Of a stretch of DNA of 64,000 bases, positions 42,150-64,000 are shown one piece after another. Below the pieces are notes generated by a model. The model was not told the DNA's origin. It saw nothing but the letters and a program-made list of their open reading frames with translations, and ran no database searches. The number at the start of each line of letters is the position of its first letter. Within the stretch, counting starts at the first letter, position 1. The position numbers and the translations under genes are program-made. Source of the stretch: Schmidtea polychroa (taxonomy: Eukaryota); contig CM097888.1 in NCBI GenBank assembly GCA_044892525.1, positions 69,812,001 through 69,876,000 of the forward strand. Reading direction: 5' to 3'.

Positions 42150-44620
42150 CCATCAATTAATAGTTCTTTAATATCCCTAGTATCCAGACATTTAAAGCTG
42201 GTTCATTTAAATCATTTTCAGATGTCATTACATGATTATTTTCGTTAATATTTGTAACCATATCTATTATTTCATCCTCGTTTAATTCACCATCAATTAA
42301 TAATTCTTCAATATCTCTAGTATCCAGGCATTCAAAACCTTCTTCTAACTGATGTGCTAAATCAACAATTTGAATGATTTATTGTTGTGGTTGGCGTAGT
42401 CCTTTCTGGTAATTTGGCAATAGTTGCACCACTTTTCAATTGATCATCTATTTTGTCTATTTCAATTAATATTTTACCTTGTTCAACTTCTGATTTTAAG
42501 TTACAGGTTTGCAAAAGATCTGATTTGTTCTTGAATAAATTAGACATTGCATTGAAGAAATTTTGTTCGATTTTCTCTAAAACATTTCCAATATAATTCA
42601 TTTTAGAATCGGAATCCGTGAGTGACGTAAAATTTCTTCCATCGAATTCGACTTTAATTTTTTTACATAATTTATTTACTATAATTCGGCAATTATGACC
42701 ATTTATTAATAATGCAGCAAAATGCAAGTTATCATTTCCAAAGTTCTCTACATTGAGATATTTTAGAGAATCCATGCATTCGAATGAATCTTTGGAATAA
42801 CAATAAGAATTTTTAGCTAGCGAAAAACAACCCAATTGAGGTTTTTGCATATCGTTTATTTTACTCATAAAAATATTCTGATGAATAAGTCAAATTGCAG
42901 GTAAAGATATTTTTAATTTAATTTACAAAGTTTTTAATTTGAATTACAAAAATTTACAGATCTGAGTAAAACAAAAATATATATATAATAGAAACTACAT
43001 AAAAAATGTAAATATAATCAGACCAGGTAAACATATTCAACAGGCATTTCTCATTTACAAAATGTCCGATTATTTCTAAAGATTTTACAGCCTGCCGATT
43101 TGTCCATGAACCATTTTGACCATTGTCATTCGCATACAATATTTGAGGAAATGTATATCCTTTGCCGTTCTGATCCTTTTTTGCATTATCACCTTGATCA
43201 GAATTTGTAAAGACGTGTGGTGGTTTGATAAAAAGATCTTTTCGGGTTCATATTATTGTTAGGATTTGTTCCGTATTTCGCGAATTGTAATGGATGAGGG
43301 TGTTGGTCTATGAAAGCCAACACTAAAACTATTGGGAGCCGAATACAGTTTATCTTGATAATGATAACATGGCATCGAATTTGCTTTACTCGCCTGAGAT
43401 TGATTAATAGAGCCTGATTGATAAGTAGAAGTATTAGCTGATCGCACGAATTTTGATTGACTGTAATTGTGTTCTGCTTGGTCCTTATTCGCTGGTGACC
43501 GCGCATTTATAGATATAATATAATATAATATAATATAGTATAATAGGTATATAGATATTGTTAAGGCCGTGTAACGGCTCACTACATTTATTCCTCAATT
43601 GTTGCTACAGTATTACATTCTGCTAAAATATCGGACCATATATTTTTTTCCAGCATGACTTTAAAGTTGAATGTCTTATTTGTTTTGATGCCACTGCCGC
43701 AAGTAAAATTTTTCCAAACTTCAGTTAATGTTAGATTTATTTTCATCTAATTTGCCTAGTGTTTTAAGAGACTCTTTGATGTAGTGAGTTTTGAATGTTG
43801 CAACTATTCCCTGATTCAGCGGTTGAATTAAGGAATTTGTATTTGGTGGTAAAAAGACAACCAATACGTTTGTATGATGCAAATTTTGTGGATGGCCAGG
43901 AGCATTATCTATTAACAACAGTGCATTGAATTGAAGCTTCTTTTCTCTGCTTCTGGAACGAAATAATTGTAAAACCAATCAGTAAAAATTGTGGCAGTAA
44001 GCCATGCTTTTTTATTGACCATTCAATGAACTGGAAGATTATTCATGTCTATTCCTTTCATTGCACGTGGTTTAGGAGCTCGGTGAATAACTAATGGTTT
44101 CATTATACGATCACCAGGTGCTTTACTACAAAATAGAAATGTTACGATTTCTTTCGCTACTTTAAATCCACTTGCAATTTTCTCTGCTTTAACTGAGTTA
44201 GTTTTGCTTGGCATTTTTTTCCAGAACATTCAATATTTGATTAGGAACATATGATCCTTCTGTAATGATTTTTGAAAGTTCTTGTATAAATTTTTTGGTG
44301 GATTCATCAACAGTAGACGCAATTTCACCTTTGATTTTAAGACTATGTAATGCATATCTCTTTTTGGAATTCTCAAACCATCATTTAATACTAGACAAAT
44401 GTTTTTTTATTATTTTCAGATCTCGTAGCTTGATTTTTTTCCTTTATTTTGTTAAAAATTCTAACAGCTTTATGCTTTATTAGGTTATTATCAATAGGAA
44501 TACTTTTTTGGTTATCTTTATCCCCGTCCCCATGATTCCCGTGGCCTCATCTTTTTTGTATAATGAAAACTTACAACTTATTATAGATTCAGAAGCCACA
44601 CTACTTCTAATATCTTCCTC
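42150..44620 (-). mobile_element. Degenerate Tigger/jerky-type transposase, split by a solo LTR
   Basis: WFENSKKRYALHSLKIKGEIAS, KKAWLTATIFTDWF, ALLLIDNAPGHP, FLPPNTNSLIQPLNQGIV. The C-terminal IVDLAHQLEEGFECLDTRDIEELL resumes below 42383. Confidence 0.85.
42383..43586. mobile_element. Solo LTR (1204 bp) containing an ORF
   Basis: Begins TGTTGTG and ends CACTACA. 5-bp TSD TTTAT at 42378-42382 and 43587-43591. Interrupts the Tigger coding sequence. Confidence 0.85.
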
Positions 44621-46362: not shown

Positions 46363-47130
46363 AAGTCGCGTAAAACGAGGCATTAAAAAATACATGAAGA
46401 AAACAAAATGCATAGTAAATTAATTGAATAGTTTTCAAATGTACATACTTTTTAATATTTATTTAAATTATATTACACCTAATTCCGAAATTTAGTAACT
46501 TCTGTAATCTAAAAAAATCAATAAATTTATAGTATAGGAACACACAAACATACCTGTGTGTAGTGTTGCGGGTACACTACTCGGATGACCCTTTTCTAGT
46601 GCAGCTTTAGTCTAGAGGATGAATGCCCACCTTGATTTCGCCCATCATTTATTTGGTCATCGCCGAGCGGGACCCGTACATAACCTACACTCCAGCATAG
46701 CACCCGTGAATTGCTTCACGTTGGAACTGTGCTATGCCGGCGAGACGCCAGTAAGCAGGTGAGCCAGCTCCTTCGGACTACTCCTTACTGAGGCCTCGAC
46801 TTCCCAACCCTGACTGCCGATAGAAGGACTTACGTCTACTCATTCCGTCGCCCCTCGCAATAATTCTAGCTGAGTTTACCAACTGACTAATGCTCCTCAT
46901 AATTTTATGACTCTCAATGCCATTTACCAATTTCAACTCAACTGTCTTAAGGTGAGCACAAAGAAAAAACGTATGCAGACAAAAATGGTTTATTATTAAG
47001 GTTATCACACAAATATATCTAACACCTATACAATAAAATTCCCGACAACAGGAAAAGAGACAAAGGTAAAAATGTTATCAGACAATGTTCGGGCCATTTC
47101 AGAGAACGAAGACTTTTTACGGAGAAATTC

Positions 47131-47880
47131 TCATTTCTCCCACTCCGAGTCTGCCAATAGATCTTCCAAATCGAAAAACTCAGAGGCATTTTCCTCCCAG
47201 GTAACACCAGCGGCGGAGATGATTCGCCCTGAGATCACTGATGCTAAATCGATTGCTGCAGGAGGGTTGATGACTTTGATTGGATGATCCGACGATCGCG
47301 GGTTCTGTTTGGCGGTTACGCGTTCCCGCTGTTTCTTTTTGCGTTCGGCTCTCGATAATTGCCGACGCTTTGGTTTCGATGCCGTTGGATTGGTCGGGGG
47401 TGCTGCGGAGGTGGATGCTATCGCAGGTAGCACGTTACTGGTTCCGGTAAAGATGATTTCTGGTTCTTTAGGTGAGAGCTCGGTCTCTACGCACCCATGG
47501 CAAGGCTTTCCGACTGGAGAAGAAGACCCGCCCGAGATATCATGATGCGCTGGGAAGAGATTACCGGCTTCATTACTTGGGATCTTCGCGATCTTCCTTG
47601 TAATTGCTGCCTGGACGTATAATTTGTGCAGCGCCTCCGACTGCTCTTTTATCAGGCTCCTCTGCGCCCGACTCTCGGAAATCAACGCGTCTCTACAGTG
47701 CTCGCTTCGGTGCAGCTTCTTCTGAGCCTCCTTCATCTGGGTGGGACTGAACCATGTCCCCTCTAACTCATCTATCTTTCTTTTGTGCTTTCCGATCTGG
47801 GCCTGGAGCTCCTTGATAATTGAATTCTTGTCGGAGCAAGAAAAACAAGGTCGAAGAACGGTCTTGGAATTTGGCAACAT
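47131..47880 (-). CDS. 249-aa accessory protein: CxxC, coiled coil, CxxC, basic NLS-like patch, acidic-aromatic tail
   Basis: Intact ORF preceded by a strong acceptor TTATTCTCATTTTCCATTTTTTCCACAG, 8 nt before ATG. No family recognised. Confidence 0.6.
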   Translation of the reverse strand: MLPNSKTVLRPCFSCSDKNSIIKELQAQIGKHKRKIDELEGTWFSPTQMKEAQKKLHRSEHCRDALISESRAQRSLIKEQSEALHKLYVQAAITRKIAKIPSNEAGNLFPAHHDISGGSSSPVGKPCHGCVETELSPKEPEIIFTGTSNVLPAIASTSAAPPTNPTASKPKRRQLSRAERKKKQRERVTAKQNPRSSDHPIKVINPPAAIDLASVISGRIISAAGVTWEENASEFFDLEDLLADSEWEK

Positions 47881-50800
47881 TTGAGTGACTGTGGAAAAAA
47901 TGGAAAATGAGAATAATTAAATCGACGTGAGTGTCACCATCTAACCACATTCCGACTTTACTGATCATAGACAAAGATATGGGTTTACTAGTCAAGACAA
48001 GTTCTACTGTACGATGGATCCTCATACCTTTTGGATCTTTAATTGTAAGAGGATAAATCGATCAAACCAAATTTCGTACAAGGAAAGGAAGGTATTACCA
48101 TTTGTGAGAGAAATTCTAGGTCGATGAAAATGATTATTTAGTTAATCCGCTTGCAATCATTATCTCACGTTTACTGAGAGTCGAATTAAATTGTTGACTT
48201 TTCCCCCCGAACGAGTGATTTTGATGAGTGCATCATATACTGGGGTCGAGTGACTATCTATGGAAAAAGGGGTCCATAATGTCCGTTGATCAGTTCCTAC
48301 CGGATAAACGGAAAGTTATTTAATTTTTTAATTATTTATTCATTCTCTCTAATTACTCACATATGTGTTTTACCTGGTTTAAATAATATTCGATATTAAT
48401 ACTAATGATAATTATGTCAAAAATTGAAATAATTTCTGTGCCATTCATGCTAAGATAATAAAGAGAGAATAATCATAATTATGATCGGGTTTGGCATTAA
48501 AAATTATTGTCTTTATGATAACCGAGCACGGTATCAATGTGAGCTAGAAGCCGACCATTCCTGCTAGGTAGATAAGGAAATGTCAGCCCGGTGGTTGACT
48601 ATTAATCCGGAGCGGTGAAATCCGATACCTGTCGGTAGTTTAATTAGTTAATAGAAATTCCATCTGGTATGTTCAGTCTGATTTTACATGAGTAGGGACG
48701 GGTGTGACTTTACCCACTGCGCTTGGCTACTGTGTATGTCTGCAACTGGTGACGCATGCAAGGTGCGCTTTCACACACTTAATTATGCTACAAATGTATG
48801 TGTTCAATGTTTGCATGATGGCATTTCTCAGAATTTTATCTACCGCGAAATCGCTCACAGTTCTACTGCATATGATGATGATTTACTAATTCTCACCGGA
48901 TTATTGGAAAAATTATAATTATCTGTATTGCAAATGTTGGATATAGCTTGCTCCAAGGGTGGATTTTTCGTCTTTAATTCCTCAAGCCTAGTTTATCAAT
49001 CTACTCTCTAAGTGCTGGAGGATTTTTTCTATCTCTGCTGGATTGCCAACCTCATGTAATACTGGAATTTTGTATTTAACAAGATTATCGGCTAACTTGA
49101 AGAAATATATTTTCTTGGTTCGAATTGGTTGCATTTTTCATTGTTAAATTAGTTGATGCCAATAGTTTATGTAATTAGGATAATTAATTGTATGTAAATT
49201 CTTTTATATATAATTCTAAAAATTTATGATAGAGAATCATTTTATGTAATTTAAACGTTCATTTGGAACAAACTCGTTTTATGCAATTCTGAATCACTTT
49301 TTGGATTAAATCATTTTACATGGTTCTACCATTTATTCACAAGCAGTCATTTCGAGTAATCCTAATACTTATCTGAAGCCATCTACTTTGAACTCCCTTG
49401 CAACTATGTCTTTAAGAGAACTTTTAGATGAACGGAATAACAGTTCAGAAGGTCATAGGCTAAAAATTAGTCGGAACAGATTCTGAGTGAAAAATATGAA
49501 CCTCGAAGATATGTCACAGATAGCCTCACTAAGGTTTGAACAATTCTTGACGCACAACTTACATTGATGATGGAGAAAATTTTCTTAGCAAAAACGACAT
49601 TCAAAAACGATAGTGTGACACCCTCAATCACTGCGCGAATACATCAAAATTCTCCGATTCCCTTATTACATATCTTTGTTTTCAATCACTACATGACTAT
49701 CAATTTTCTGCCACCATTTACCTATAGATTTTAGTCGCACCTTCAGCAATTGGACCCGTGAAGAAGCCTTCACATTTCGGCCCAATCTAGCTGCGTGATT
49801 GAAATACCCTATGTCCACCGGTGGAGCTCCCGAAGGCACCTCACACCATGACATAGAGTATCTCAACGCCACGTTTCTCGCAAAATTGAATAGTCTCCAA
49901 TAATAATTCATAAAAATTGATTCGTAAAAGATCAATAATTCTTAACGAGCAAATCATTTATTATTAAGCAAATTATTAATTTAAATAAAGCATTCTAAAA
50001 TCAAACGAAAAGAAAAACCATTTTTCAAATTAAAAATATAATTAAACTATACGCATTACTTAAAAATTCAAAATAAGCAATCAAAAATCCTTATCGAATG
50101 ATTGATACTAGTATGGGCTGAGTCGAAAAGGGTACTATGTCAAATCAGTTAATGCTTGAATATCGTCTAGTTCTGTAAAAATCTCTTGAATCTTGGAATT
50201 GTCCTCGTGAGTTATCGTGCGTTAGTTGCTGGAGTTCTGTTCTGTCGTAGAATAGATTTACCTATTGAGGTGGTTTGATTAACAGTAGTTGTTATGTTTT
50301 TAATGCCTGCTTATATATTAATTTTTTGTTTGCGCGGACCAATTAGAATTGAGTACCGCTTAATTTTATTAATTTAATTTATTTTCCTTGTTTTTGAGTT
50401 ATTTCTTCTTATTTTCTTTATTAAAATTATGTTTTTATTTATTTTCCTTAATTTTCTTATTATTTACTATATTTTACGTTGTTTTCCGCCATTCTATTGT
50501 CCTATTTTAATTTTTTCTCATCTTTATATTTTTTGTTTTAATTCCTATTTTCTAATTATTGTTTTTCTTATGTTTTATTCTATTTTATTTGTCAATTTAT
50601 TTGTTTTTATTTTTTATTTTATTTTAGTTAAGTTTGCCCTAATTTCCCAACTACCCTTCGACTCAGCCCAACAAATCACTCGGGGACCCATCAAAATTGC
50701 GTCCCGCAATTGCATAGTTATCTTACTTCATGCATTCATAAAAAGGATATATCGAAACAATTATACTACAATAACAAAAACAATTTTATTCTAAGATATA

Positions 50801-50906
50801 GGTCAAAACAAGACCAAGCAAGTATCACTTAAGGTGATAGTTTGTATATACAATAAAAGTTTCTACATATGATAACACCAATGTTTGAGTTAGAGTCTAT
50901 GAACTG

Positions 50907-51566
50907 CTAACCATTTGATGCTTCTGCTGACGGTTGTTGGTTGGTTTGGGTATTGGTGTTGAGATAGGTCTGATTGTTAGAATTCGGCTGGATTGGTTGG
51001 TTACTCGGGATTCGAGGTCGGAATGGGGTTGGGTTAAGATTTGTCAGTGGCACTTCTTGAGGATTTCTGTTCGAGATTACTCTTATTGATGTCGAGATTC
51101 TGCATCTATTTCTAACTTCGTAGATCTTCATGAGTATTGGTAGACATAGGAGGAGGGTTTCTGCGATCACCACATATATGAGATAATGGGTGTCATTGAT
51201 TTCGGGAGGTGTTTTTGGTTTTTCTACAAGATTTTCAAAATTCTCTTGTTGCATTTGTTGTTCCAACTGGTCGAATTGTTGAATTTGTTCGAGGATTTGT
51301 TTGTTTATCATTTTACAAATGGGATTCTTTTTACACATTGTTTGGATGTTGTTGATGTGTGATCGGGTTGATTGAATGGTTTGGATGATATGGATTTTTA
51401 CTGTCATAGGGTATGTGCATTGGCCGGATTCTTGTTTAGGTTCTTGATTTTGATTTCGGTAATCTCGTACGATTTTCGGTTGGGCGTTTACTTGTTTGTT
51501 CTCCATCAGAATCATCAATACCGTTATTGTTATCATCATCTCGCCTCGCATGATACTATTATACAT
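50907..51566 (-). CDS. Predicted type I membrane protein (signal peptide, small ectodomain with Cys, one TM, Pro/Gln/Asn-rich tail)
   Basis: Hydrophobic MMITITVLMILM...VNA/QP, MCKKNPIC, TM YLIYVVIAETLLLCLPILM. Start could be 51551 or 51539. Confidence 0.7.
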   Translation of the reverse strand: MYNSIMRGEMMITITVLMILMENKQVNAQPKIVRDYRNQNQEPKQESGQCTYPMTVKIHIIQTIQSTRSHINNIQTMCKKNPICKMINKQILEQIQQFDQLEQQMQQENFENLVEKPKTPPEINDTHYLIYVVIAETLLLCLPILMKIYEVRNRCRISTSIRVISNRNPQEVPLTNLNPTPFRPRIPSNQPIQPNSNNQTYLNTNTQTNQQPSAEASNG

Positions 51567-51607
51567 TCATTATGGTTTATTTACAATTGGTTTTAGTGAC
51601 CCCTAAT

Positions 51608-52372
51608 TTAATGATTCTGGTTTGGGTTATTTTCGGCGATTCTCATCAGGGTGGATTCCGCTTTAATAACTCTGTGTCTTAACTCGGGCAGCATTTCCAA
51701 CTGTCTGTTCTTTTCACGGGCCTCCCTTTTCATGTGCCTTATCTCCTTTTTCAGCCTTCTAATTTCTTCCCGTTTTTTGTCGAGGTTCCTTTTTAGTTCG
51801 ATTTGTAGGAAATCTTGTTCGTTTTCCTGCGAAAGGTTTCGTTGTTGTTGTTGTTGTTGTTGTTTTCTCTCGATCTCTTGGTATTTGCGAATCCATTTCT
51901 TCATTTCCTCACTTTCTCGTTGTTTTTCCTCCAATTGTCGATTTAATTTATTTATAGTTATTTGGTGTTCTTTCGCCTTGGTTTTCCAATAATCCTGGAT
52001 TACTTCTTCTGCCTTGAAGCTTGCCCTCTCTTGCCATAGTTCCTCTGCAATCTTTTCCCAGTTTCTTCCTCGTGTTCGTTGTTCTTGCAACCATTCATTC
52101 TTCTCTTCCGCTTCCCTCTTTATTTCTCCTAACACTTCGCACTCCTTCTTTAGTATTTTAATCATTTTTCGGTCTTCTATATATTTGTTTATTAGTCGCT
52201 CGTTTTCGTCCTTCTCTTCCCGTAACTTGGCCTTTAACGTTTGTGTTTCTGTTGTTTCTGCCTCAATCTCTCCCTCTTCTACGTCGCTCGTAATTTCTAT
52301 TATTTCCTCGATTTTCATATCTGTAATATGTACAGTTAATGGTGCGCTATAGTGCGACTTATACATATACAT
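51608..52372 (-). CDS. Coiled-coil accessory protein (E/K/R/Q-rich)
   Basis: Intact 254-codon ORF with heptad-like charged composition. Likely start 52318 (MKIEE). Confidence 0.7.
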   Translation of the reverse strand: MYMYKSHYSAPLTVHITDMKIEEIIEITSDVEEGEIEAETTETQTLKAKLREEKDENERLINKYIEDRKMIKILKKECEVLGEIKREAEEKNEWLQEQRTRGRNWEKIAEELWQERASFKAEEVIQDYWKTKAKEHQITINKLNRQLEEKQRESEEMKKWIRKYQEIERKQQQQQQQRNLSQENEQDFLQIELKRNLDKKREEIRRLKKEIRHMKREAREKNRQLEMLPELRHRVIKAESTLMRIAENNPNQNH

Positions 52373-52503
52373 TTATATAAAATTTTAATAGTTCGGGTTA
52401 CAGTCCCTTGAATACTTTTACAATACTTTAATTTTTTTTTTTTTTTTTTTTTTTTTGTTTGGGATATACGTCCCGATTTTTGTCTTTATCTTTTTATTCA
52501 CCC

Positions 52504-53559
52504 TTATACGAAGGTTTCCTCCTGTCCCACATAACCTTCGTCACTATCGACCGCTGGATGCAACTGTATCGCAATAGGGTCATAGGGTAGGTAATATTGG
52601 GGGATTTGAGCTCTCAATTCATTAACTTCATCTCTTAGAGCTCGAGTGATATTCAGCTCTTCGTCGAGCAGATAAGTGAGATACCTTGTCTCTTCGTCTT
52701 TCGCCTCTACTTGTCTATCTAAGGCCTTGATTTTCTCGTCGCCCTTCCATTTTTCAATTTCTATTTCCAAGTTTTTGATATTTTCGGTATACATTTTCCT
52801 CTCGTTTTCTAATTTTCTGTTTTTTCCCGCTAGGACCATGTTTCTTTGTTCTAACGATCCTTGTAGTCCATTAAGGTCTCTTTTCATCTCTTCGACCTGA
52901 TTTACTAATTCCACAACCCGTCCTGCTTGCTGGGTTATCATCTCTTCCATTGCAGCATTCTCGTGCTCTCTTATGTCGCATTTTATTGCCAAATGTCGTT
53001 CAAACTCCATAGCCTTCATCTGCCATGTTTGGCTTCGGGCGGCGACCTTTTTCAACCGTTTCAGTTCTTCCTTTATTATTAAATTTTCCTCCCATTTACC
53101 CTGTTCGCTCTCATATCCGAGTCTCATGGGCAATTCTTTCATCTCTTTTTTCATTTCATTGCTTTGTCTTTTCCATTTTCTCGCTTCTGCCACTAAGTGC
53201 ATCATTTTCCTTCCTTCTATTTGCTTTTCCGCTTCGCGCTTGGTGTTCTCATCGGTAAGTCTCTTTCTCGCTTCCTGCACTAGCTGCTTTAAGTAGTGGC
53301 TGTGCGCTTCTTGGCGGGTATTTTCTAGTGACGCCCATTTTGATGCTCTTTTGCATGCTTCTGCTTCCGCTCTTAAGTTGTGTATTAACCATTGGTATTG
53401 ACTATTCTCATCCTCTCTAGCTTCTTCGATGTGATTTCGGGTGAGATTAGTTAGTTGGAACATTACTTTGTTCCATTTTTTGTTATGTTCTCGGGGAATT
53501 TGTGTCTTGTTGACATTGGTTGGGACTATCGCAGTTTCGGTTAGTTTCTCTTGTGTCAT
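52504..53559 (-). CDS. Coiled-coil accessory protein, 351 aa
   Basis: Intact ORF, long charged helical segments, acidic C-terminus (DSDEGY). Confidence 0.75.
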   Translation of the reverse strand: MTQEKLTETAIVPTNVNKTQIPREHNKKWNKVMFQLTNLTRNHIEEAREDENSQYQWLIHNLRAEAEACKRASKWASLENTRQEAHSHYLKQLVQEARKRLTDENTKREAEKQIEGRKMMHLVAEARKWKRQSNEMKKEMKELPMRLGYESEQGKWEENLIIKEELKRLKKVAARSQTWQMKAMEFERHLAIKCDIREHENAAMEEMITQQAGRVVELVNQVEEMKRDLNGLQGSLEQRNMVLAGKNRKLENERKMYTENIKNLEIEIEKWKGDEKIKALDRQVEAKDEETRYLTYLLDEELNITRALRDEVNELRAQIPQYYLPYDPIAIQLHPAVDSDEGYVGQEETFV

Positions 53560-53753
53560 CTCTAAATCATAGACATCGATTAAGCTTTTTATTATGAAAA
53601 AGGAATTTATTCATTATTTGCTGTTTCTTTGGAAATTTTCGCATCATTTTTGGGTTTACGTATTTAGGGTTTTTCATACTATTATTATATAATATTTTAT
53701 TGGTTATATACACCGATATATACAGATTATTATATACAACATTATTCGATCGT

Positions 53754-55142
53754 TTACTCCGTTCTGCCCTTCTCCTCTTTCCTTACGGTCATCTTGATAT
53801 ACACCGTGCCATTTCTTGCCATATCTTCTACTTTTTGTTGTAGGATGAACGTAGGTGCTCCTGTTGCTGATCCTTCTTCTTCCGTAGGTCTCTGGTAACA
53901 CATTTGGTTTCCAGTTGTCTTGAAGCTTTGTTCGTGGATGTTTCGGTCATTCATTAGTGCAATATCGATTTTCGCCTGGAACGGCCACTCTATTATTTCG
54001 TCGTATTCTCCTTTACATAACAGAAAGAAAATCGAAAAGTGTGTGTCTAATCCGGTTCCGTCCCCGTTGGGATATATCTTCATTTTCATTTTGTACCCAT
54101 TTTTCCAAGAATGGAATGCAGGACTTGTTATTCTTGTCTCTTCTCCGGTTTTTGCTTTTCGTATTCTTTCCTTTACTCCCGTAATCTTCCATATGTAGGG
54201 TGCTGTTGGGGTTATCTCATTTAGATTTATTTCCCGTATTTTCTGATGTAGCTCCTTGGCCTGATTATTACTGATTTCTATTCGGTTTATTTGCATCTTT
54301 ATGTTTGCTCGGGCTTCTTCGAACGCTTCCCTTTCTTCTAGTAGTTCTTTGACTAACACTTTCAACGATGCTATCTCTATCTCCATTTGTTTTACTTTCT
54401 CCTCGCTTTCTTGTAACGCAGTCGACCACATTTCTGCGTGGGTTGAAGCATTTTCTACTAAATGATGTGGTAACTCCCCTCGGTGTAGTAGTTTCTGACA
54501 ACCCCATTTGCCTAGTACGCATGTCATTCTTTTCTTTTCACATTCCCTTAGATGCTGTGCCACCTTCATTATTTCCCCTTGGTTACATCCGTTTGGGCAT
54601 TCCCCACTGAACTCTGCACATACTCTCTCCTCTTGGACATTGTGATGTTTGAGGGTGAGATTTTTCCACGTATCTATTTCTCCACAGTGTTCACATCTTT
54701 CTAATCTCTCCTCACACTGCCTTTGATGCTCTTTTTCTTCGCTTGCTCGAATGGTTTTATGGCACCTTTCACACTGGCCAATTCTGTACATACATTCTCC
54801 CATATGTTGTACTACCTTCCATATTACTCCTTTCCATTCGCATGGGGCATTTTTGCATCCCAGGTTGGTGTTTAACATGTCTTTCACTGCGGCTTTATCC
54901 TCGTTAGTGTCTTCTAAACTCGATATTAGTGTCTCTTTACACACCGGGCACCTCTGTGGTCTATTCTTTATTGCTTCACTGATACATTCTTTACATACTC
55001 TGCATCCACATTGGGTTTGGTGGGGTTCTTTTAGTAACTTTTCACAGATTCCGCACATAACATGTTTGTGTATTCTGATCGTTGTAGATTTTCGGACTTG
55101 CTCGACAATCTCTCTGAACTCTTCTCTTTGTCGTTTATCCAT
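53754..55142 (-). CDS. TRAF-family protein (RING, TRAF Zn fingers, coiled coil, MATH/TRAF-C), intronless, 462 aa
   Basis: RING CGICEKLLKEPHQTQCGCRVCKEC...CPVC; Zn fingers CKNAPCEWKG..H...C and CEHC...H; MATH PYIWKITG...SPAFHSWKNGYKMKMKIYPNGDGTGLDTHFSIFFLLCKGEYDEIIEWPF. Confidence 0.95.
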   Translation of the reverse strand: MDKRQREEFREIVEQVRKSTTIRIHKHVMCGICEKLLKEPHQTQCGCRVCKECISEAIKNRPQRCPVCKETLISSLEDTNEDKAAVKDMLNTNLGCKNAPCEWKGVIWKVVQHMGECMYRIGQCERCHKTIRASEEKEHQRQCEERLERCEHCGEIDTWKNLTLKHHNVQEERVCAEFSGECPNGCNQGEIMKVAQHLRECEKKRMTCVLGKWGCQKLLHRGELPHHLVENASTHAEMWSTALQESEEKVKQMEIEIASLKVLVKELLEEREAFEEARANIKMQINRIEISNNQAKELHQKIREINLNEITPTAPYIWKITGVKERIRKAKTGEETRITSPAFHSWKNGYKMKMKIYPNGDGTGLDTHFSIFFLLCKGEYDEIIEWPFQAKIDIALMNDRNIHEQSFKTTGNQMCYQRPTEEEGSATGAPTFILQQKVEDMARNGTVYIKMTVRKEEKGRTE

Positions 55143-55227
55143 TCTATAATTATATGTACATATAGTTCTTATCGATACAGGTTCGATATTTTATTTACAG
55201 TTATTTACATTTTAAGCTAGGTTTGGT

Positions 55228-55587
55228 TTAGGGTTCGGAAGAGTCGGCTTCGTGTCCGCTCTCCTCTCTATTCATTAACCATTCCGACCAGTCTTCTATT
55301 TCTGTCTGTTCTGCTTCCTCCATCATTCTGTTTAGTTCAATTTCCTGTCTACGGCTATATTGGGTTATCCTCTCTATCTCTCTTTGCATTTGTTCGATTT
55401 TCAACCTCTGGTCTTCAATTATCTTCAAATAACTAAATCCTCTATTCATACTCTCGATTAGGTTTCTGTGCATCGTCAATCCTTGTTCTTGCAAATTGGA
55501 CACTAATTGTGCTAATACGGCACATTGTTGCTTCCATAATTCTTCAGTTACTGTATTGTGGTTCATTTCGTTATTTCCTTGATCCAT
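55228..55587 (-). CDS. Small coiled-coil accessory protein (~119 aa)
   Basis: The track ORF starts at TTG 55611; first ATG is 55587 (MDQGNN). Acidic tail resembles that of the 351-aa ORF (EADSSEP vs DSDEG). Confidence 0.6.
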   Translation of the reverse strand: MDQGNNEMNHNTVTEELWKQQCAVLAQLVSNLQEQGLTMHRNLIESMNRGFSYLKIIEDQRLKIEQMQREIERITQYSRRQEIELNRMMEEAEQTEIEDWSEWLMNREESGHEADSSEP

Positions 55588-55880
55588 TCTTAATTTATAT
55601 ACACTTTTCAACTCTTATTTAAAGTTAATTTTATTTTATGGTTCCCGTTATTGTATAATATTAATACCGCGCTTATATAAAGATATAGTACTGTTATATA
55701 CATAAGATATACTTACTTTTTACAATTATATACAGTCATATTCCTTTCTATATACGTGAGTTTGGAGGGCGCTGAGCGTTCCAGGCCTCCACCCACTGTT
55801 CCTGTTTGATAACACTTGGTCGTTTCACTCGATGTTGGAAATTTCTGATTCGGGTCATCTCTAATTCTCCGCGATGTCGT

Positions 55881-58800
55881 TTATCTTTGATTATTTTTAT
55901 TGTCGCCCCCCGTTATGATTAGGAAGGCCCCTGTTATTATTATCCCACTGATCCACATCATCTGCTTCACGCTTATATTCTCTGGTTTCTCCTTGTTCGT
56001 TAATGTTGATATCGCTTCTATACCTTTCTCGTTTCCTCTTTTGCCATTTCCTTTCATCATTTCCCGTATTCTTGCTATTTCCTCGTTCATACCCTCCTTT
56101 GCCATCTTTTGTATTTTTTCCATCTCTTCCTCCGAAACATAGTTGTCCTGAGCTTCCTCGCCGGTTTTCTTGTGCTTTCCTCCTTCGTTCTTTTCGTCGT
56201 GGTTTTTTCTTTTCTTTCCTCTTTTCCCTGGGTATCGTCGGCATTCTCTTTTTGATTCATTCCTCCAGATACAAACCGTGTATTCTTTCGGCGGCTGCTG
56301 CTGCGTCACATATTGATGGCATCTCTCACCTGGTCCTAATCTTGAAATACAGACTTTGTGCTCTCTTCTAGGTTGGAGCTGCGTTATTACTATTTCACCA
56401 CCTTTTCCTAGGTGTACCTCTTTTCCTTTAACGTTCGTTATTCTCTTCCCGTCTCGATTTCGGTATGCTTCTTGTATTCTTACTTCTGTTATTGGTTCTG
56501 TGTCCTCATTTATCAGTACTAGTTTCTGATACGCTCTAGACATGCATCTTCCTAGTATGCACCTTTCCTTTAAGTCCCATTCTTCCTTTAAATCCCACTG
56601 CTGCTCTTGTGCTTGCTTTTTCTTTTCTTGTTTTAGTTCATCCTCTTTGCTATCTTGATTCTCCGCTTCTTTGGTTTCTTTTATCGTTCTCGTCCCTCCA
56701 TGAGCTGTTACTAACTCTATCATGGTAAGCATAATTATCATTAATATCATATTTGTCTCTATTTCTTTGTTAGTGAAAGGTAGGCATACCCTCTGTTTTC
56801 CATTATTCGGTTTTTCCTCCTCTTTGGTCTTGGTTCCCGGGCTGTTTCCCTCTCTTTTCGTATCCAAATCCTTGTTTTCCGGTTTATCCTCTTCCGGTTC
56901 TCTTTTCCCTTTATCCTCTTTTCGGCCTTTTCCGTCATTGTCATCGTGTTTATCTCCCCCGCTGTCGTTTAAAATGTCGTCCTCGACATTTATATCGTTC
57001 AATAATCTGCGATATGCTGTTAGCACTCTGTTTCTTGCTAATTTTGCTTCGAATTCAAACTCTTTTCTACCCGTTGCAGCATGTCTCTTTCTATTCCATT
57101 CTTTAACTAACTCTCTCAATTGCATACGACGATGTTTCCCAATTCGTTGTTGCTCGTTCTGATTTTGCGTGAATTTTAGGTCTTCTCTATTTAATACTAT
57201 TAAAATAATTTTAGGCGTCCCCCCTTTAGTTAGGGTATTCTTTACCATCGCATTTTCTCCGTTTTCGTAGAATTCGTTTACATTTATCGCATATTTATTA
57301 TTTTGTGGTACCTTCCATGTTAATAATAATTTCATTGCTTCTAGATTTTTCCGTACCGTATTCCATTGAAATTGAGATGTGTTTTTGCACATATTCTCAA
57401 CTTCTTCTTTTGTCGCATTTTTGCAAATAAATCTGATCATTTCTAAGTTTGGCTGTATGGTTGCCCAGTCCAATGTGGAGTTCCCTTCGTTTGATTTTTC
57501 GTCTAGTCTCGATCCTGATTGATGTAAGATGTGGAGTGTTTTTGGGTGTATTTTCGTTATAGCTGCATACATCATGGCGGTTTCACCTTGTTCATTTTTC
57601 GTGTTGGTTTCCTCACCCATCTCCCCAAGGATTCTCATGATCGTTATTGCTCTATTCTCTTTTGCAGCTAGTATTGCTTGTTGTAGAGGTGTTCTGGAAT
57701 CCTTTGTTACCATCGTAAATGCTCGAGGCAAGAAGGTTTTGATTTTCCCGATATCTAAACCCGTGGTTTGATCTCTTGCGTATGTGTGTACGGCTTTTAT
57801 TATTTTGGACAATATTATTTCGTCTGGCAGCTCTAGCATTTCCTCAAAGAACACTTCTTTTGCTTTGCGTATTATTGCCTCTTGATCTATACTCATTGAT
57901 TTGGTTTCGATGACGTTGTTTGTGACCGTTTGGTTCGTTGTTGACTTTGATTCCCTTGATTTCTCATACCTTATTTTCGTTTTCTTTCCGTTTGGATTAT
58001 TGATTCGTTCCTCTGCTGTAAGTATTTGGATAATATCCAGGTAATTCTCGCGGATGTTATTCATTGTGTCCATCATATATAACACACTTACCGTTTCCCA
58101 ATATTTATTTCGTACTTGGTTAGTAAATTGGAATATTGATTTTTCGAATGTGTCGATTCGCTTTTTTGCTAACTGTTCATCTTTATGATTTGTGAATTTT
58201 ATCCCTCGTTCTAGTAATTGATTCGGAATTTCGAATAAATGATGTCCTTTCATAGCTTCTCTCATCAGCGTGTTCTCTCCTCTCGTGAACGCTTCGTTTA
58301 CGTTGATCATATAATCGTTTTGAATTGGATTTCTCCATGTAATTAATATTCCGGTAATTGTTGTCAGTTTCTCTTTGATCGCTGTTAATAATCCATCATA
58401 CATGTTTCCGACTTCTCGATTGTCCTCATATGATAGTAGTTCCATCAACGACGTGAACGCCTCGGTACTTTTCCCTTCGATAGCATGATGTAGAGCGTTT
58501 TTCCGCTCGTGGTCTTGTGTAGTTATTTTCGATCCAGTATCGAGTAATGCGGTTATAATGTCTTTTGTTTTGCCTCTGTTTGCGGCTATCATTAATGGTG
58601 TGTAACCTTGGTTGTTTGTTTGTTCTGTTGATCGCTTGCAGTCGTGAAATGCTTCTATTGTTTCTAGTATTTGCTCGTTGTTACCTACTTTCATGAGTTT
58701 GTGTAATGGTGTGTCTCCGTAATGATCTGTTATTGTAAATAATATTGGCCATTGGCTTTTGACTACTCGCAATAATGGGTGTGTCCTTTCTCTATTTGCA

Positions 58801-61800
58801 TAGTTCTCGATCATCGTCAATAATCCTCCTAATATTTCGAAATCTAATCGATCTTTTGCCCATCCAGGTATTTTAATTTTTACCTCTTTTACAATCTTTT
58901 CCGCTTCTGATGGTTGGATACCCAATCGTCCGGTGATCGGTTCTGCGAGTTGTTGCATCATGTTCATTCTGTAGGTTTGCGAACGTGTGGTTAATGTACG
59001 GCCCTCTGGTTGACTAGTGGCTGTTTTTGGAATTGATTTGCATCGTGCTACGTTTACGTATATTGGCCTGGTAAATGGGTTATTTACCAATTTCACTCTT
59101 ACATTGGTTTCGCCTACGAATAAGATCTCATATGGTCCTTTTCCGTTGCGTTGTAACTTTTTTGTGGTTCCTGGAATTAATTCCGGGGTTTCTATCATTA
59201 CCCAATCACCTGTTTGAAACGTATGTTGCTTCACGTTTTTCTTTCGATCGTGTAAATCTTTATAACTTTCCTGGTAGAACTTGATATTTAATCCCGCAGT
59301 TTCCCAAATCTCCTGCATTCTTTCCTTGAATTTCGTAACATAATCGTCGATCTCCATATACTGCGATATCGGTGGTTGGTATTCCAGGTCCATTGGCATA
59401 TTACATTCTCTTCCGTACATTAATTTGAATGGGCTCATTTTCGTTGATGCGTGAATCGACATTCTGTACGCCATAAGACATAGGTTTATATATTCGTCCC
59501 AATCTCGTTGGTGACGGTCAACGTAGTTTGATAACATTTGTATAAGTGTTCCATTAAATCTTTCCGTCATCCCATTGGTTTGGGGGTGGTATGGAGATGT
59601 TCTTAGTTTTGCTATTTTGAAGTAATTTGTTACTTCGCTCATTATCTCACTCATAAAATTAGTTCCCTGATCGGTTAATATCTGTTTTGGTGTTCCATAT
59701 CGGCAACATATCTCTTCTACCAGAATTTTTGCGATTGTTTTAGCTTTTTGGTCTGGCATCGCGAATGCTTCTGGAAATTTCGTAAGAAAGTCGGTAATCA
59801 CTAAAATATAAACGTTTCCTCTATCCGATTCCGGTAATGGACCAACTACGTCCATTGATATCATCGTCATCGGCTCTATTGGTACGGGCATTGGCGTTAA
59901 AGGCGCTTTCCATTTTGATCCAGTATTTTTCCTGGTCGCACAAGTTAGGCAATTTTTTACCCATTCGGTTACATCTTCAGTTAACGTAGGCCAAAAATAT
60001 TTCTGTTTCATTCTTGCTAACGTCTTTTTCGATGACATATGTCCTCCCAATCTCCCATCGTGATATTGCGTTAGTAACTCTTTTCGTCGGTTTTCCGGTA
60101 TACACATTAATCGTTTTTCCCCATCCATTATCAGCAACCAATCTTTCTCTATAATATATCGGTGTCGGTGTTTATCCATATGTTCTTTTAATTTTTGGTC
60201 TTTCGCATATACATCTGTCTTTCCGGTTTTTACATAATCGATAATTTGTTTTAATTCCGCGTCCTCTTGTTGGTTCTTTCGCAATTGACAGAAATCTAGG
60301 TCTTCTGCTACCATTAGGCATATGCGTTGCATTTCTGAATCCACCAAATCTGGAAAAATAAATCTTGACATACAATCGGCGTTGGCATTTGCTCTTCCCG
60401 CTTTGAATTTTATAAATGGGGAGTATTCTTGCAATTGCATGGCCCATCTCATCAGTCTACTGGACGCTTCTTTATGTTGCCCTAACCACACTAATGGTTG
60501 ATGATCTGTGGTTATACATATCTCATGTCCCCATAGTAAATATCGGAAGTGTTTGATAGCTTGTATTATAGCCAATGCTTCTCGTTCTGTTACCGAATAG
60601 TTCTTTTCGTGCTTTTTGAATGTTCGACTGTAATACCCGATTACTCTCTCTTTTCCTTCATCGTCTAATTGTCCCAGAATCGCGCCTGCCGCGTACCCGC
60701 TTGCATCCGTTGCCAATAGAAATGGCTTCTTAAAATCTGGGTGTACTAGGATAGGTGCTTCGATTAGTTTATCTCTCAGCGTTTCAAACGCCTCTTGTTG
60801 TTCCTTCCCCCAAATGAACGAAATGTCCTTCTTTACTAATTCCTGGATTGGTTTTGCAATTTCTGCATAATTTTTTATAAATTTGCGATAGTATCCGCAT
60901 AATCCTAGAAATTCCTGAACTTGGGTGACAGTTTTCGGTGCTGGACATGTTTTTATTTTCTCAATGTTTCTTGGATCTGGCTCCTTTCCTTTAGCTGACA
61001 CTATGTGTCCTAAAAACGTGACTTTTTCCTTTGCCCAATCGCATTTTGATGGTTTGAGTTTGAGTTTCCACTGTCTTAATCTAATAAATACGTTTCGGAT
61101 ATCTTCCAGATGTTGTTCAAATGTCGCTGAATAGATTAGTAAATCATCAATATATACCATACATTGTTTGATTCCATGAGTGACAAAGTTCATACACCGT
61201 TGAAATGATGCTGGTGCGTTGGTCAGTCCGAATAGCATTTTCCTGAATTGATATAGATCTCGTCCCAACGTGAAAGCTGTTTTCTCTTTGTCCTCATCTT
61301 TGACTTTAATCTGCCAGTATCCACTTTTTAGATCTAAAGAAGTAAAATATGCTGCCCCTTGCAACATCAATAACATCTCATTGATGTCCGGCAATGGATA
61401 GGTATCTCTCTTGGTTACTGCGTTTAACTTCCGATAATCGATACAGAATCGTTGGGTGCCATCTTTCTTTTTTACCATGACCACTGGGAATTGCCAGGGT
61501 GAGCAACTTGGTTCGATTACTTTTGCGTCTAGCATCTTTTGTACTTCTGCTTCGGCTATTTCTTTTTGCATTTCTGCTAGCTTGTATGGTCTTAATGCAA
61601 TTGGAGTTTCATCTATGAGGGGTATTGCATGTAGGGTAACATCGCATGTACCCAAATCTAAATCTGAGATGGCGAATATATCTTTATATTCTACCAACAA
61701 TCGGTGCAATTTTTTCTTTTCATCATTCGTCAACAACATACTATCTATTGTCCATAATTCATCATCTTTGATCATCTCGTTGGTCACTTTCGGTAATTCT

Positions 61801-64000
61801 ATGTCCATCATTGGGGTCAATCTTCCCAATTTTTCGTTCTCATAAATGATTTTGTCTTCCTCTTCGAAATTCGTGATGTTGAGCGGTATCACTCCTTCTT
61901 GGTTTATTGTGATTATTTCCCTTGCGAGTGGTAACTCTCGTCGCTTTTCAAATGACTTGCTTGGTTCAAAGATAACTTCTCCTTCCATACCCGTATCCAC
62001 TTTTATCTGACAAATCATCTGCGATTTTGCTGGTACTATTATTTTTTCTGGACATCTGATTACTGCATTCATTTTGCATATTCTACCGGTTTTGTCTTTT
62101 AAACACATGGTGGTTAAGTCAATTACGACTTCTTTTAACAATTCTGGCATCAAATCCGTTCCGATTATGCATGGTACGCTAAGTTTTGGTATTACTGCCA
62201 AATACGTTTCAATTTCGTTGTCCTGGTATCTCAAAGTAGTCCACCATCTTCCGACCACGTCCACTGTTTCTTTACTACATGCTATGATGTGAATTGTTGT
62301 TGATTCGATATCTTTCCAGTGTTTACTGGGGATTTGATTAATCGCTATCGCTGATACATTAGCTCCGGTGTCTATCATAGCATTGGTTTCTTTACCATTG
62401 ATTTGAATCATAACTGTTACTGCTGGACCTCCAGGTAGACTCATTGCTGCTATTGTTCTTACGTCATCTGCTTGATCTACACTTTTGGTACGTCGTGTTG
62501 GCATATAATGCATACCGGGTTGACTCGGTAATTGCGGATACATATTTTGTGTCATGGTCAAAGCTGCTTGTGGTCCCACGATATCCGGTGGTATGTAGCT
62601 TCCATTGGCGATCCAGGTATTTGTCTTTTCCTTTTCCCAATATGGTGCCGTTTCCATTGGTTTTTCGTTTGGGTTTCTGTTTGGATATAGACATTTATCG
62701 TTCCCGTTATCGTCGTCGTCACTATCGCTGTTAGATGATTGGCTTCTAAATCGGTTCAAGAATTTTGGCTTATTCTTTTTCAATTGTCGTCTTGTTGCTT
62801 CATCGTACATTACTTTCCGGAATCGTCTGCCTACTTCTTCGTCGGTTCCTTTAATCTTTGTTAATATTTTAATCAATTGCTTTATCCGATGAATGTCTTT
62901 TGAGTGACCATGTAATACCATGGTTTTAGCTAAAAATGGTAGAAAGCCTACTATCATTTTCCAATTTACTTTCTTTTCTCGCTTGTATATATCAAAACAC
63001 GCTAACATTTGTGTTAGTTTTACTCTGACTATCTGAATTATGAGTATGATCCCTAATATCCCGGCCATCATTTGTCCAAAAACTAAGAATCTTCCCCACA
63101 TTGCTTTCATCATGTTCGATGTGGCTTGTTGAAAATGGTCTGGTGATAGTAGCAGCTCGTAATTCGGGCCTGATTGATAATTTGTTCCCCCCGTTATTGT
63201 AACCATATTTGACAAAATGGATTCTCGTCTGGCTGGGAAGAGTACGTTAAGTCGTGCTGTTTCTAGATCTTCTGGGGAATACATACCACCGTTTGACACG
63301 TCTATAGGTTTGAAATCCAGCTCTGTGGCGAGTTCTATTAATCCAAATTTCTTGGGCTCCTCGGATATGGTTTTTCCCGGTAACATCATCCATTTCCCAT
63401 CGGGTCTTTCATACAAAGGTCCGTATGCATTAGAACAGTTAAAGAGATTTGGGTAGAAACCCACTGGATTCATAATTCTAGTGACTGGTTGGACGAATCG
63501 ATTTTGTCCTTTATAACGGATTTCTAATTCATTTGCACATCTCTTTTCGGGTAGTATGGATTTTTCTGGCATTCGTGCATACGTCTTGGTACACTGGTAT
63601 GTGTACATCACTTCTCCTACCATTCTACCAAAATGTCCATCTGGTAATGGGAGTGATGGCATTGTGTTATCTGGGTGTGTTATCGCAATAGCTAACTTGG
63701 TTTTCAGTATTTCTTTATTCAATGAACAATCGTTTTGTATCAGATCGTAATATACTTTTTGCAAGGTCGTTTGTCCACGGTGAAATAGAAAATCCATTTT
63801 ATTATTTGCATATAAGTATAGTTTTACGTCCTCCGTTGCTATCTTTCCCACTGCTCTATCGATTATTTGTCTCGACATATAGATACCAGCGTAATTGGTT
63901 TTATATACTATACTGTCACATTTGGTGGTTTCTTTCTCTTTGATAAATCTCATACCTAGATCTGGATCGTCTGTGATTAATGCTGTTGGTGTCTTCTGCG
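55881..64000 (-). CDS. Polyprotein >2700 aa: chuvirus-like glycoprotein-TM-protease-RT-RNase H-integrase-2x ankyrin module-membrane tail; 5' end outside window
   Basis: The frame stays open upstream of ATG 63953 (QKTPTALITDDPDLG). G-like GEVMYTYQC..CANEL..FVQPVTRI..C..GKW; TM 63027-63089; DTG 62364-62372; YIDD 61143-61154; ATDASG ~60700; HHCC ~59937-60070; DVVGP, TDQG, ERFN integrase core; GPY ~59135; ankyrins DTPLH, GYTPLMIAA, KNALHHA. Confidence 0.95.
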   Translation of the reverse strand, partial: QKTPTALITDDPDLGMRFIKEKETTKCDSIVYKTNYAGIYMSRQIIDRAVGKIATEDVKLYLYANNKMDFLFHRGQTTLQKVYYDLIQNDCSLNKEILKTKLAIAITHPDNTMPSLPLPDGHFGRMVGEVMYTYQCTKTYARMPEKSILPEKRCANELEIRYKGQNRFVQPVTRIMNPVGFYPNLFNCSNAYGPLYERPDGKWMMLPGKTISEEPKKFGLIELATELDFKPIDVSNGGMYSPEDLETARLNVLFPARRESILSNMVTITGGTNYQSGPNYELLLSPDHFQQATSNMMKAMWGRFLVFGQMMAGILGIILIIQIVRVKLTQMLACFDIYKREKKVNWKMIVGFLPFLAKTMVLHGHSKDIHRIKQLIKILTKIKGTDEEVGRRFRKVMYDEATRRQLKKNKPKFLNRFRSQSSNSDSDDDDNGNDKCLYPNRNPNEKPMETAPYWEKEKTNTWIANGSYIPPDIVGPQAALTMTQNMYPQLPSQPGMHYMPTRRTKSVDQADDVRTIAAMSLPGGPAVTVMIQINGKETNAMIDTGANVSAIAINQIPSKHWKDIESTTIHIIACSKETVDVVGRWWTTLRYQDNEIETYLAVIPKLSVPCIIGTDLMPELLKEVVIDLTTMCLKDKTGRICKMNAVIRCPEKIIVPAKSQMICQIKVDTGMEGEVIFEPSKSFEKRRELPLAREIITINQEGVIPLNITNFEEEDKIIYENEKLGRLTPMMDIELPKVTNEMIKDDELWTIDSMLLTNDEKKKLHRLLVEYKDIFAISDLDLGTCDVTLHAIPLIDETPIALRPYKLAEMQKEIAEAEVQKMLDAKVIEPSCSPWQFPVVMVKKKDGTQRFCIDYRKLNAVTKRDTYPLPDINEMLLMLQGAAYFTSLDLKSGYWQIKVKDEDKEKTAFTLGRDLYQFRKMLFGLTNAPASFQRCMNFVTHGIKQCMVYIDDLLIYSATFEQHLEDIRNVFIRLRQWKLKLKPSKCDWAKEKVTFLGHIVSAKGKEPDPRNIEKIKTCPAPKTVTQVQEFLGLCGYYRKFIKNYAEIAKPIQELVKKDISFIWGKEQQEAFETLRDKLIEAPILVHPDFKKPFLLATDASGYAAGAILGQLDDEGKERVIGYYSRTFKKHEKNYSVTEREALAIIQAIKHFRYLLWGHEICITTDHQPLVWLGQHKEASSRLMRWAMQLQEYSPFIKFKAGRANANADCMSRFIFPDLVDSEMQRICLMVAEDLDFCQLRKNQQEDAELKQIIDYVKTGKTDVYAKDQKLKEHMDKHRHRYIIEKDWLLIMDGEKRLMCIPENRRKELLTQYHDGRLGGHMSSKKTLARMKQKYFWPTLTEDVTEWVKNCLTCATRKNTGSKWKAPLTPMPVPIEPMTMISMDVVGPLPESDRGNVYILVITDFLTKFPEAFAMPDQKAKTIAKILVEEICCRYGTPKQILTDQGTNFMSEIMSEVTNYFKIAKLRTSPYHPQTNGMTERFNGTLIQMLSNYVDRHQRDWDEYINLCLMAYRMSIHASTKMSPFKLMYGRECNMPMDLEYQPPISQYMEIDDYVTKFKERMQEIWETAGLNIKFYQESYKDLHDRKKNVKQHTFQTGDWVMIETPELIPGTTKKLQRNGKGPYEILFVGETNVRVKLVNNPFTRPIYVNVARCKSIPKTATSQPEGRTLTTRSQTYRMNMMQQLAEPITGRLGIQPSEAEKIVKEVKIKIPGWAKDRLDFEILGGLLTMIENYANRERTHPLLRVVKSQWPILFTITDHYGDTPLHKLMKVGNNEQILETIEAFHDCKRSTEQTNNQGYTPLMIAANRGKTKDIITALLDTGSKITTQDHERKNALHHAIEGKSTEAFTSLMELLSYEDNREVGNMYDGLLTAIKEKLTTITGILITWRNPIQNDYMINVNEAFTRGENTLMREAMKGHHLFEIPNQLLERGIKFTNHKDEQLAKKRIDTFEKSIFQFTNQVRNKYWETVSVLYMMDTMNNIRENYLDIIQILTAEERINNPNGKKTKIRYEKSRESKSTTNQTVTNNVIETKSMSIDQEAIIRKAKEVFFEEMLELPDEIILSKIIKAVHTYARDQTTGLDIGKIKTFLPRAFTMVTKDSRTPLQQAILAAKENRAITIMRILGEMGEETNTKNEQGETAMMYAAITKIHPKTLHILHQSGSRLDEKSNEGNSTLDWATIQPNLEMIRFICKNATKEEVENMCKNTSQFQWNTVRKNLEAMKLLLTWKVPQNNKYAINVNEFYENGENAMVKNTLTKGGTPKIILIVLNREDLKFTQNQNEQQRIGKHRRMQLRELVKEWNRKRHAATGRKEFEFEAKLARNRVLTAYRRLLNDINVEDDILNDSGGDKHDDNDGKGRKEDKGKREPEEDKPENKDLDTKREGNSPGTKTKEEEKPNNGKQRVCLPFTNKEIETNMILMIIMLTMIELVTAHGGTRTIKETKEAENQDSKEDELKQEKKKQAQEQQWDLKEEWDLKERCILGRCMSRAYQKLVLINEDTEPITEVRIQEAYRNRDGKRITNVKGKEVHLGKGGEIVITQLQPRREHKVCISRLGPGERCHQYVTQQQPPKEYTVCIWRNESKRECRRYPGKRGKKRKNHDEKNEGGKHKKTGEEAQDNYVSEEEMEKIQKMAKEGMNEEIARIREMMKGNGKRGNEKGIEAISTLTNKEKPENISVKQMMWISGIIITGAFLIITGGDNKNNQR

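Follow-up and report, generated by a model that had tools for sequence, protein, structure and literature searches.

How does a giant retroelement express a row of genes that lies behind a polyprotein of at least 2705 codons? The question is raised by a 64,000-nt stretch of the Schmidtea polychroa genome (contig CM097888.1, 69,812,001 to 69,876,000; hereafter the window, in whose positions all coordinates are given). By the domain layout reported for such elements in PMC6431247, the sequence between 50900 and the end of the window belongs to the 3′ part of a giant gypsy element of the Burro type, read on the minus strand. Its polyprotein open reading frame (ORF) is followed by five ORFs on the same strand, A to E, preceded by spacers of 293, 85, 194, 185 and 56 nt (813 nt in total). 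An initial annotation had proposed that each accessory ORF follows a splice-acceptor-like AG and that a polycistron is resolved by alternative splicing or by spliced-leader (SL) trans-splicing. Judged from the sequence, A to E are real genes in an operon-like row and the splicing idea is plausible. The strongest signal of the spacers, which that annotation had overlooked, is a statistically strong regulatory motif, UGUAHAUA (TGTA[ACT]ATA). The element is of a known kind, and its accessory-gene array is apparently undescribed. Its features are:

55881..64000, minus strand: 3′ part of the polyprotein ORF, at least 2705 amino acids (aa), open at the window edge
55588..55880, minus strand: spacer A, 293 nt; UGUAHAUA at 55734, 55702 and 55603; AATAAA at 55635; AAG at 55589
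55228..55587, minus strand: ORF A, 119 aa, no Pfam match
55143..55227, minus strand: spacer B, 85 nt; UGUAHAUA at 55209, 55199 and 55160; AATAAA at 55195, overlapping the 55199 copy; TTATAG ending at 55144
53754..55142, minus strand: ORF B, a 462-aa TRAF protein with RING, Cys/His-rich region and MATH
53560..53753, minus strand: spacer C, 194 nt; UGUAHAUA at 53738, 53724 and 53712; near-motif at 53575; AATAAA at 53701, 53611 and 53593; TAG ending at 53562; seven upstream ATGs
52504..53559, minus strand: ORF C, 351 aa, coiled-coil-like by composition, no homologue found
52319..52503, minus strand: spacer D, 185 nt; AATAAA at 52498; run of 25 A at 52456-52432; TATA at 52379; UGUAHAUA at 52334; TTACAG ending at 52321
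51608..52318, minus strand: ORF D, 236 aa from 52318 (254 aa from 52372), coiled-coil-like
51552..51607, minus strand: spacer E, 56 nt; UGUAHAUA at 51585, overlapping AATAAA at 51581; near-motif at 51565; TAG ending at 51556
50907..51551, minus strand: ORF E, 214 aa (219 aa from 51566)
50785..50852, minus strand: region downstream of E; UGUAHAUA at 50852, AATAAA at 50790, then a GT-rich stretch

The window is AT-rich, with a strong excess of A on the minus strand from about 50900 up to the edge. In one frame, the polyprotein has Pfam domains for a fusion glycoprotein (PF24664, 14-339), protease (PR, 529-620), reverse transcriptase (RT, 842-1000), RNase H (RH, 1063-1192) and integrase (IN, 1300-1472), and then ankyrin repeats. 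About 1000 further aa follow the integrase and include two ankyrin blocks as well as, towards the end, hydrophobic stretches (57100-58700, minus strand). Two traits that PMC6431247 attributes to Burro/GYPSM1 giant gypsy elements were thus recovered with Pfam, namely an env-like fusion glycoprotein in frame upstream of PR-RT-RH-IN and a cargo of ankyrin repeats plus a TRAF/MATH gene. The D. tigrina Burro element likewise has TRAF in a separate accessory ORF, but the account in PMC6431247 describes it as upstream, whereas the present element has TRAF and four further ORFs closely lined up on one strand behind the polyprotein. Burro elements are a prominent, piRNA-repressed part of planarian genomes (PMC6431247, PMC8532177, PMC10558129), and Burro RNA increases when piwi is depleted (PMC8532177). 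The account of Burro/GYPSM1 in PMC6431247 describes neither an expression route nor Pumilio sites, and the portions of the Burro literature covered here do not describe how accessory ORFs are expressed. RT matches in metagenomes have 29-47% identity; 80 metagenome RT loci had no match to A-F or to the fusion domain and contained at most two UGUAHAUA per 300 nt. A recent study reportedly deals with an anti-apoptotic Burro1 gene.

The start of ORF B is fixed because its closest TRAF relatives begin at a matching methionine (within one residue in the three closest). The planarian Dendrocoelum lacteum is the source named for two of the ten TRAF relatives looked up, in keeping with a flatworm host, and no related DNA was detected in the viral and metagenome contigs searched. 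One relative, P0010, has an N-terminal stretch like an integrase C-terminus, which suggests a TRAF fused behind integrase in another long terminal repeat (LTR) element. ORF E has a hydrophobic N-terminus and a second hydrophobic stretch that, by eye, suggest a membrane protein; its Atlas matches are all below 0.9.

Copy variation was taken from contigs of four runs of one study (4 of 12 listed runs contain the stretch, and none is on record as RNA, though two are guessed to be; X1, X5 and X6 below are handles for these data). The variant places are the 40 best-supported of about 1700 and not a random sample; 19 fall in A-D and none in E. Variants at under 80% of X1 depth were classed as segregating and the others as private to this copy. 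In A-D, 11 of the 12 segregating variants are at third codon positions (P=5e-5; A 3/3, B 6/6, C 1/1, D 1/2), compared with 2 of 7 private ones. This pattern indicates purifying selection among copies, seen best on A and B. At 55905, the length differs from the window in many contigs, and the polyprotein stop and the length of spacer A may accordingly vary among copies.

The motif occurs 11 times on the sense strand of the spacers, with one further copy after E. Dinucleotide-shuffled spacers have a mean of 0.47, and none of 2000 shuffles reaches 11. It is absent from seven ORFs (13.0 kb) and from the 4.1 kb between 50700 and 46559, and the flank contains 18 copies in 46.4 kb, counting both strands (0.20 per kb per strand). 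Its reverse complement is found once in the spacers. Among all gapped 8-mers UGUAHAUA ranks first in the spacers; the best pattern of 500 shuffled spacer sets reaches at most nine copies (at most six if G or C is required), and matched flank sets contain at most three. The fifth base is T in seven copies, A in three and C in two, and the other positions are fixed.

The consensus of the Pumilio response element is given as UGUANAUA in PMC11182014. The match here is exact, on the sense strand and non-coding, with up to three copies within 30-60 nt; it differs in that three exact copies stand just before the next start codon, not clearly within a 3′ untranslated region (UTR). UGUAHAUA is probably a PUF site, a prediction that is largely independent of the choice of expression mechanism because in the genome RNA, as for the ORFs upstream, every spacer counts as 3′ UTR. 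Nine copies lie between a stop codon and AATAAA or overlap AATAAA. Planarian Pumilio is needed in stem cells, and pumilio RNAi affects neoblasts (PMC3552358); the motif suggests an element wired to this protein. Two other identities for the octamer were rejected. It does not match the planarian Initiator matrix of PMC10558129, and CFIm/UGUA as a general host poly(A) feature was set aside on the basis of PMC5068929 (a different or unconfirmed species), whose analysis describes S. mediterranea poly(A) sites as having neither upstream UGUA nor an enriched octamer.

The motif also has a place relative to the start codons. Exact copies are at -16, -18 and -16 before A, B and D (P=0.004 for random placement), and copies with two mismatches are at -16 and -14 before C and E. 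The five starts therefore share a cassette consisting of the motif or a near-copy at -14 to -18 and then an AG 1-4 nt before the AUG. In a loose form, defined post hoc, the cassette is found at 22 of the 2357 ATGs of the window, all five A-E starts included. The motif-packed spacers and this shared pre-start signal hint at separate, host-regulated messages for A-E.

The signals named in the initial annotation are all where it placed them, though most are weak. All six of its AG-to-ATG contexts are present, and its positions for AATAAA and TATATAA are the last bases of real hexamers (starting at 55635, 55195, 53701, 53611, 53593, 52498 and 51581) and real boxes (starting at 55679 and 52379). 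Any AG within 4 nt before the ATG is common, being found at 154 of 421 minus-strand ATGs from 46500 to 64000 (37%). YAG, with Y a pyrimidine, is found there at 45 of 347 ATGs from 50900 on and at four of the five accessory starts, B-E (P~0.001). The flatworm trans-splice acceptor hexamer is reported as UUNYAG (PMC12582326) or YTNCAG (PMC8629364); as YTNYAG it is present at B and D only of the six starts, and at four of the 347 ATGs overall, two being B and D. UUNYAG is missed by one base at C and E and unmatched at A and F. At the D acceptor, the Y position has T for C in 94-100% of depth in three runs, with YAG and the hexamer retained; this is weak support because such transitions are the commonest change. 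In every A-E spacer, all upstream ATGs precede the AG. Among the 15 of 130 contig joints listed (contigs, none on record as RNA), none ends at a candidate AG. A contig from X6 that crosses spacer E unspliced was not used, X6 depth following a DNA repeat profile.

The pyrimidine share from -22 to -3 is 0.40, 0.50, 0.60, 0.55 and 0.35 for A to E and 0.85 for F. It is 0.70 for the single host acceptor examined, which belongs to a fragment of a homeobox gene whose homeodomain is interrupted by a short intron (18640-19237, minus strand; acceptor ending at 18886). AATAAA occurs seven times in the spacers against 5.85 expected, and 716 of 2000 shuffles reach seven; its presence in every one of the five spacers has a chance of about 0.02 (product of per-spacer values). 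Flatworm leaders end in AUG (PMC12582326, PMC8629364), and this AUG would be out of frame at six of six sites (chance 0.09). In combination, the proposal of a polycistron resolved by splicing keeps the operon-like row, the AGs past all upstream ATGs and the hexamer match at B and D, but loses ground on the unenriched AATAAA, the lack of pyrimidine tracts at A-E and the frame of the leader AUG. F, which it had listed along with the others, is 3026 nt away from E and forms a case of its own, of the cis type.

Since the ORFs upstream are long, plain scanning is ruled out, and A-E must either have new 5′ ends or be initiated internally. Splicing is favoured for B, C and E because the AG follows all upstream ATGs and there is no usable TATA box. 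There is about an even chance that the AGs are used as acceptors at all; use by cis splicing is a doubtful possibility, use by SL splicing is rather unlikely, and a mixture of mechanisms is likely. We tentatively favour expression of A-E as in a complex retrovirus, through spliced subgenomic mRNAs from weak acceptors, with Pumilio control. A long primary RNA would be spliced onto the weak AGs before A-E, which would strip all upstream AUGs and give each ORF its own 5′ end, and the weakness of the acceptors would spare enough unspliced genome RNA. The spacers would double as 3′ UTRs, and a host PUF protein would repress or destabilise genome and subgenomic RNAs via the Pumilio sites. The donor would most likely be cis, and the features concerned are:

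55709..55716, minus strand: donor-like GTAAGTAT, a full intron-side match to the U1 consensus and the sole one on the element's minus strand
50256..50317, minus strand: TATA box (50317), short first exon and donor TAG/GTAAAT, with the intron starting at 50261
46559..50714, minus strand: probable 3′ LTR, ending in ACTACA at 46559, start uncertain (about 50714, or 49693)

Candidate unpaired cis donors are at 50261, 49721 and 55716. The proposed donor would be either GTAAGTAT at 55716 or the 5′ LTR counterpart of TAG/GTAAAT (56 nt past the TATA box at 50317), provided that the LTR starts near 50714. GTAAGTAT occurs once in the element and twice in the 46.4-kb flank, both strands counted. Where a cis donor is present, it is reported to outcompete the leader (PMC4558846).

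Several points weigh against this proposal. The starts of D and E were chosen downstream of open in-frame ATGs at 52372/52366 and 51566, and with the first ATGs the YAG count falls to two of five (P~0.13). Position -3 is a purine at each of the A-E starts, and the AG signal may in part be start-codon context. No pyrimidine tract precedes A-E, and A has only AAG. Credible TATA boxes stand before A and D, with no ATG after the expected start. The 5′ LTR lies beyond the window, the 50261 donor falls outside the LTR if the latter starts at 49693, and cleavage at each AATAAA would part donor from acceptor, giving an operon with flatworm spacing. The motif emerged post hoc from a single copy, and it may have a role in DNA, as five of the eight TATATAA boxes lie inside it. 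Finally, the copies at -14 to -18 would leave their own gene's mRNA on splicing, which a plain 3′-UTR role does not explain; they could gate acceptor use or initiation.

A somewhat unlikely alternative is that A-E, or at least A and D, have their own TATA-driven start in the spacer and end at the next AATAAA. The initial annotation had allowed for this as a caveat, citing TATATAA boxes. The compact DNA viruses and the internal promoter of foamy viruses are comparable designs. TATATAA is enriched in the spacers (8 against 1.36 expected; 0 of 2000 shuffles reach 8), but the five boxes noted above belong to UGUAUAUA copies of the motif. The box at issue for A is:

55673..55679, minus strand: TATA box TATATAAG, resembling the box at 50317; candidate internal promoter for A

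This box also resembles the TATA box of an LTR-like repeat near 43511. For A and D, no ATG lies between the expected TATA-driven start site and the ORF, and A has the weakest AG; these two fit internal promoters as well as splicing or better. TATAWAW was not found in spacers B and E, and the last TATA of spacer C, at 53691, is followed (from about 30 nt beyond it) by five ATGs before the start, all preceding the AG. The motif at -18 is not a TATA box for B because the TRAF relatives fix its methionine. The planarian Initiator TTTGTTTAAATA matrix (PMC10558129; three cells filled by subtraction) has no match in any spacer, the best score being 2.0 of 13.0, and PMC10558129 reports the Initiator at only 10-40% of host promoters.

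An SL operon, in which the RNA is cut after each AATAAA and a host leader is trans-spliced to the next AG, is unlikely. The layout resembles that of flatworm operons as described in PMC12582326 and PMC8629364, with same-strand genes less than 300 bp apart (A-E do so, F at 3026 nt does not), AATAAA before the AG and a UUNYAG-like acceptor at B and D. The 56-293 nt spacers fit the 300-bp operon threshold and 99-bp median intercistronic distance of S. mansoni (PMC12582326) and the 100-bp peak of Macrostomum (PMC8629364), and each contains AATAAA; acceptors C and E are one base from the hexamer. Partial leaders beside LTR/LINE elements may derive from trans-spliced retroelement RNA, according to PMC12582326. 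Against this stand the frame of the leader AUG, an AATAAA count at background, the unmatched hexamer at A and the unpaired cis donors upstream. This element further differs from flatworm SL operons in being part of a retroelement, the genome RNA of which has to remain intact, in that three of five acceptors miss the hexamer and in having an extra motif near the acceptor, a position for which PMC12582326 reports no other motif within 50 nt in parasitic flatworms. It is quite unlikely that both ideas combine, such that SL machinery would cut a five-gene retroelement operon and Pumilio sites in every spacer and beside every acceptor would let a stem-cell RNA-binding protein decide between genome RNA and accessory mRNAs, or that an RNA with twelve sites would soak up Pumilio.

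Internal translation of one polycistronic RNA, by reinitiation or internal initiation with the -14 to -18 cassette (perhaps PUF-bound) acting at the start codon, is improbable. The distance from motif to AUG (14-18 nt) does vary slightly less than that from motif to AG (10-17 nt), and the purine at -3 would suit it. The long upstream ORFs and the short upstream ORFs within the spacers do not, and PUF proteins are described as repressors in PMC11182014. A structured internal ribosome entry site is unsupported, since spacer folding is no better than that of shuffles (z -2.7 to +1.7, only D below -2).

It is very improbable that the spacers derive simply from captured cDNAs as their AT-rich 3′ ends, with the AGs there by chance. 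The frequency of AG before ATGs in general and the A run of spacer D speak for this reading, but it leaves the motif's fixed position before the starts unexplained, and S. mediterranea poly(A) sites, as analysed in PMC5068929, do not supply such an octamer. The A run (52432-52456, minus strand) begins 37 nt after the AATAAA at 52498 that follows ORF C; it may be the fossil of a poly(A) tail, acquired when a polyadenylated RNA was captured. Immediately past this AATAAA, one of the X5 contigs departs from the window.

Complex retroviruses and foamy viruses, to which the favoured reading of weakly spliced subgenomic mRNAs likens this element, place accessory ORFs in the interval from the structural genes to the 3′ LTR and use weak acceptors, a cap-proximal donor and an optional internal promoter. 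The element differs from them in its gypsy-type polymerase, five non-overlapping ORFs, AT-rich spacers each with AATAAA, and PUF-type motifs. Foamy-like endogenous retroviruses of fish are mentioned in PMC6431247. The literature searched yielded no case of SL-resolved genes in a retroelement or of PUF control of retroelement acceptors; the original Burro and planarian SL3 papers may bear on this. The exact coordinates given here for one copy serve for deciding the expression route of the accessory ORFs.

ORF F probably lies inside the 3′ LTR:

47889..47908, minus strand: F acceptor, pyrimidine-rich (0.85 Y) and host-like
47131..47880, minus strand: ORF F, 249 aa, without the UGUAHAUA cassette; AATAAA at 46994 and a T-rich stretch downstream

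On balance, we predict that F is a separate, cis-spliced gene with a short first exon and a 2.4-kb intron (50261-47889). No homologue was found for it, its Atlas matches being below 0.9. None of its five variants is at a third position, and as most are private to this copy they are uninformative on selection. Short inverted arms (AATAG...CTATT; 50251-50266, minus strand) flank the donor at 50261, and an identical TAG/GTAAAT is found at 49721. A gap in X5 and X6 cover at 48201-49400, inside the proposed intron, was not used, both coming from one study.

As for the borders of the LTR, contigs belonging to the flanking repeat separate at 46560-46562 and divergence among copies sets in upstream of 50716; seven bases at 49693 match the LTR end in inverted form. 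The element is apparently inserted in a high-copy repeat with an end at 46474 (46474-46560; 64 loose-ended contigs in X1). A minus-strand A-rich stretch at 50340-50625 has high X5 contig depth, and plus-strand matches to the Initiator matrix at 50428, 50532, 50558 and 50600 possibly reflect composition alone. A loose A run at 50744 in X5 was rejected as a poly(A) tail, as it belongs to the opposite strand, coincides with an A run of the genome and has no AATAAA.

Outside the element, a second LTR-like start (TGTAGTG..., then a TATA box and GCGCGG) is found at 43480-43586 on the minus strand, within a Tigger/pogo-like remnant (family assigned by eye). A tandem array of 6/18-nt units occupies 14114-14359.

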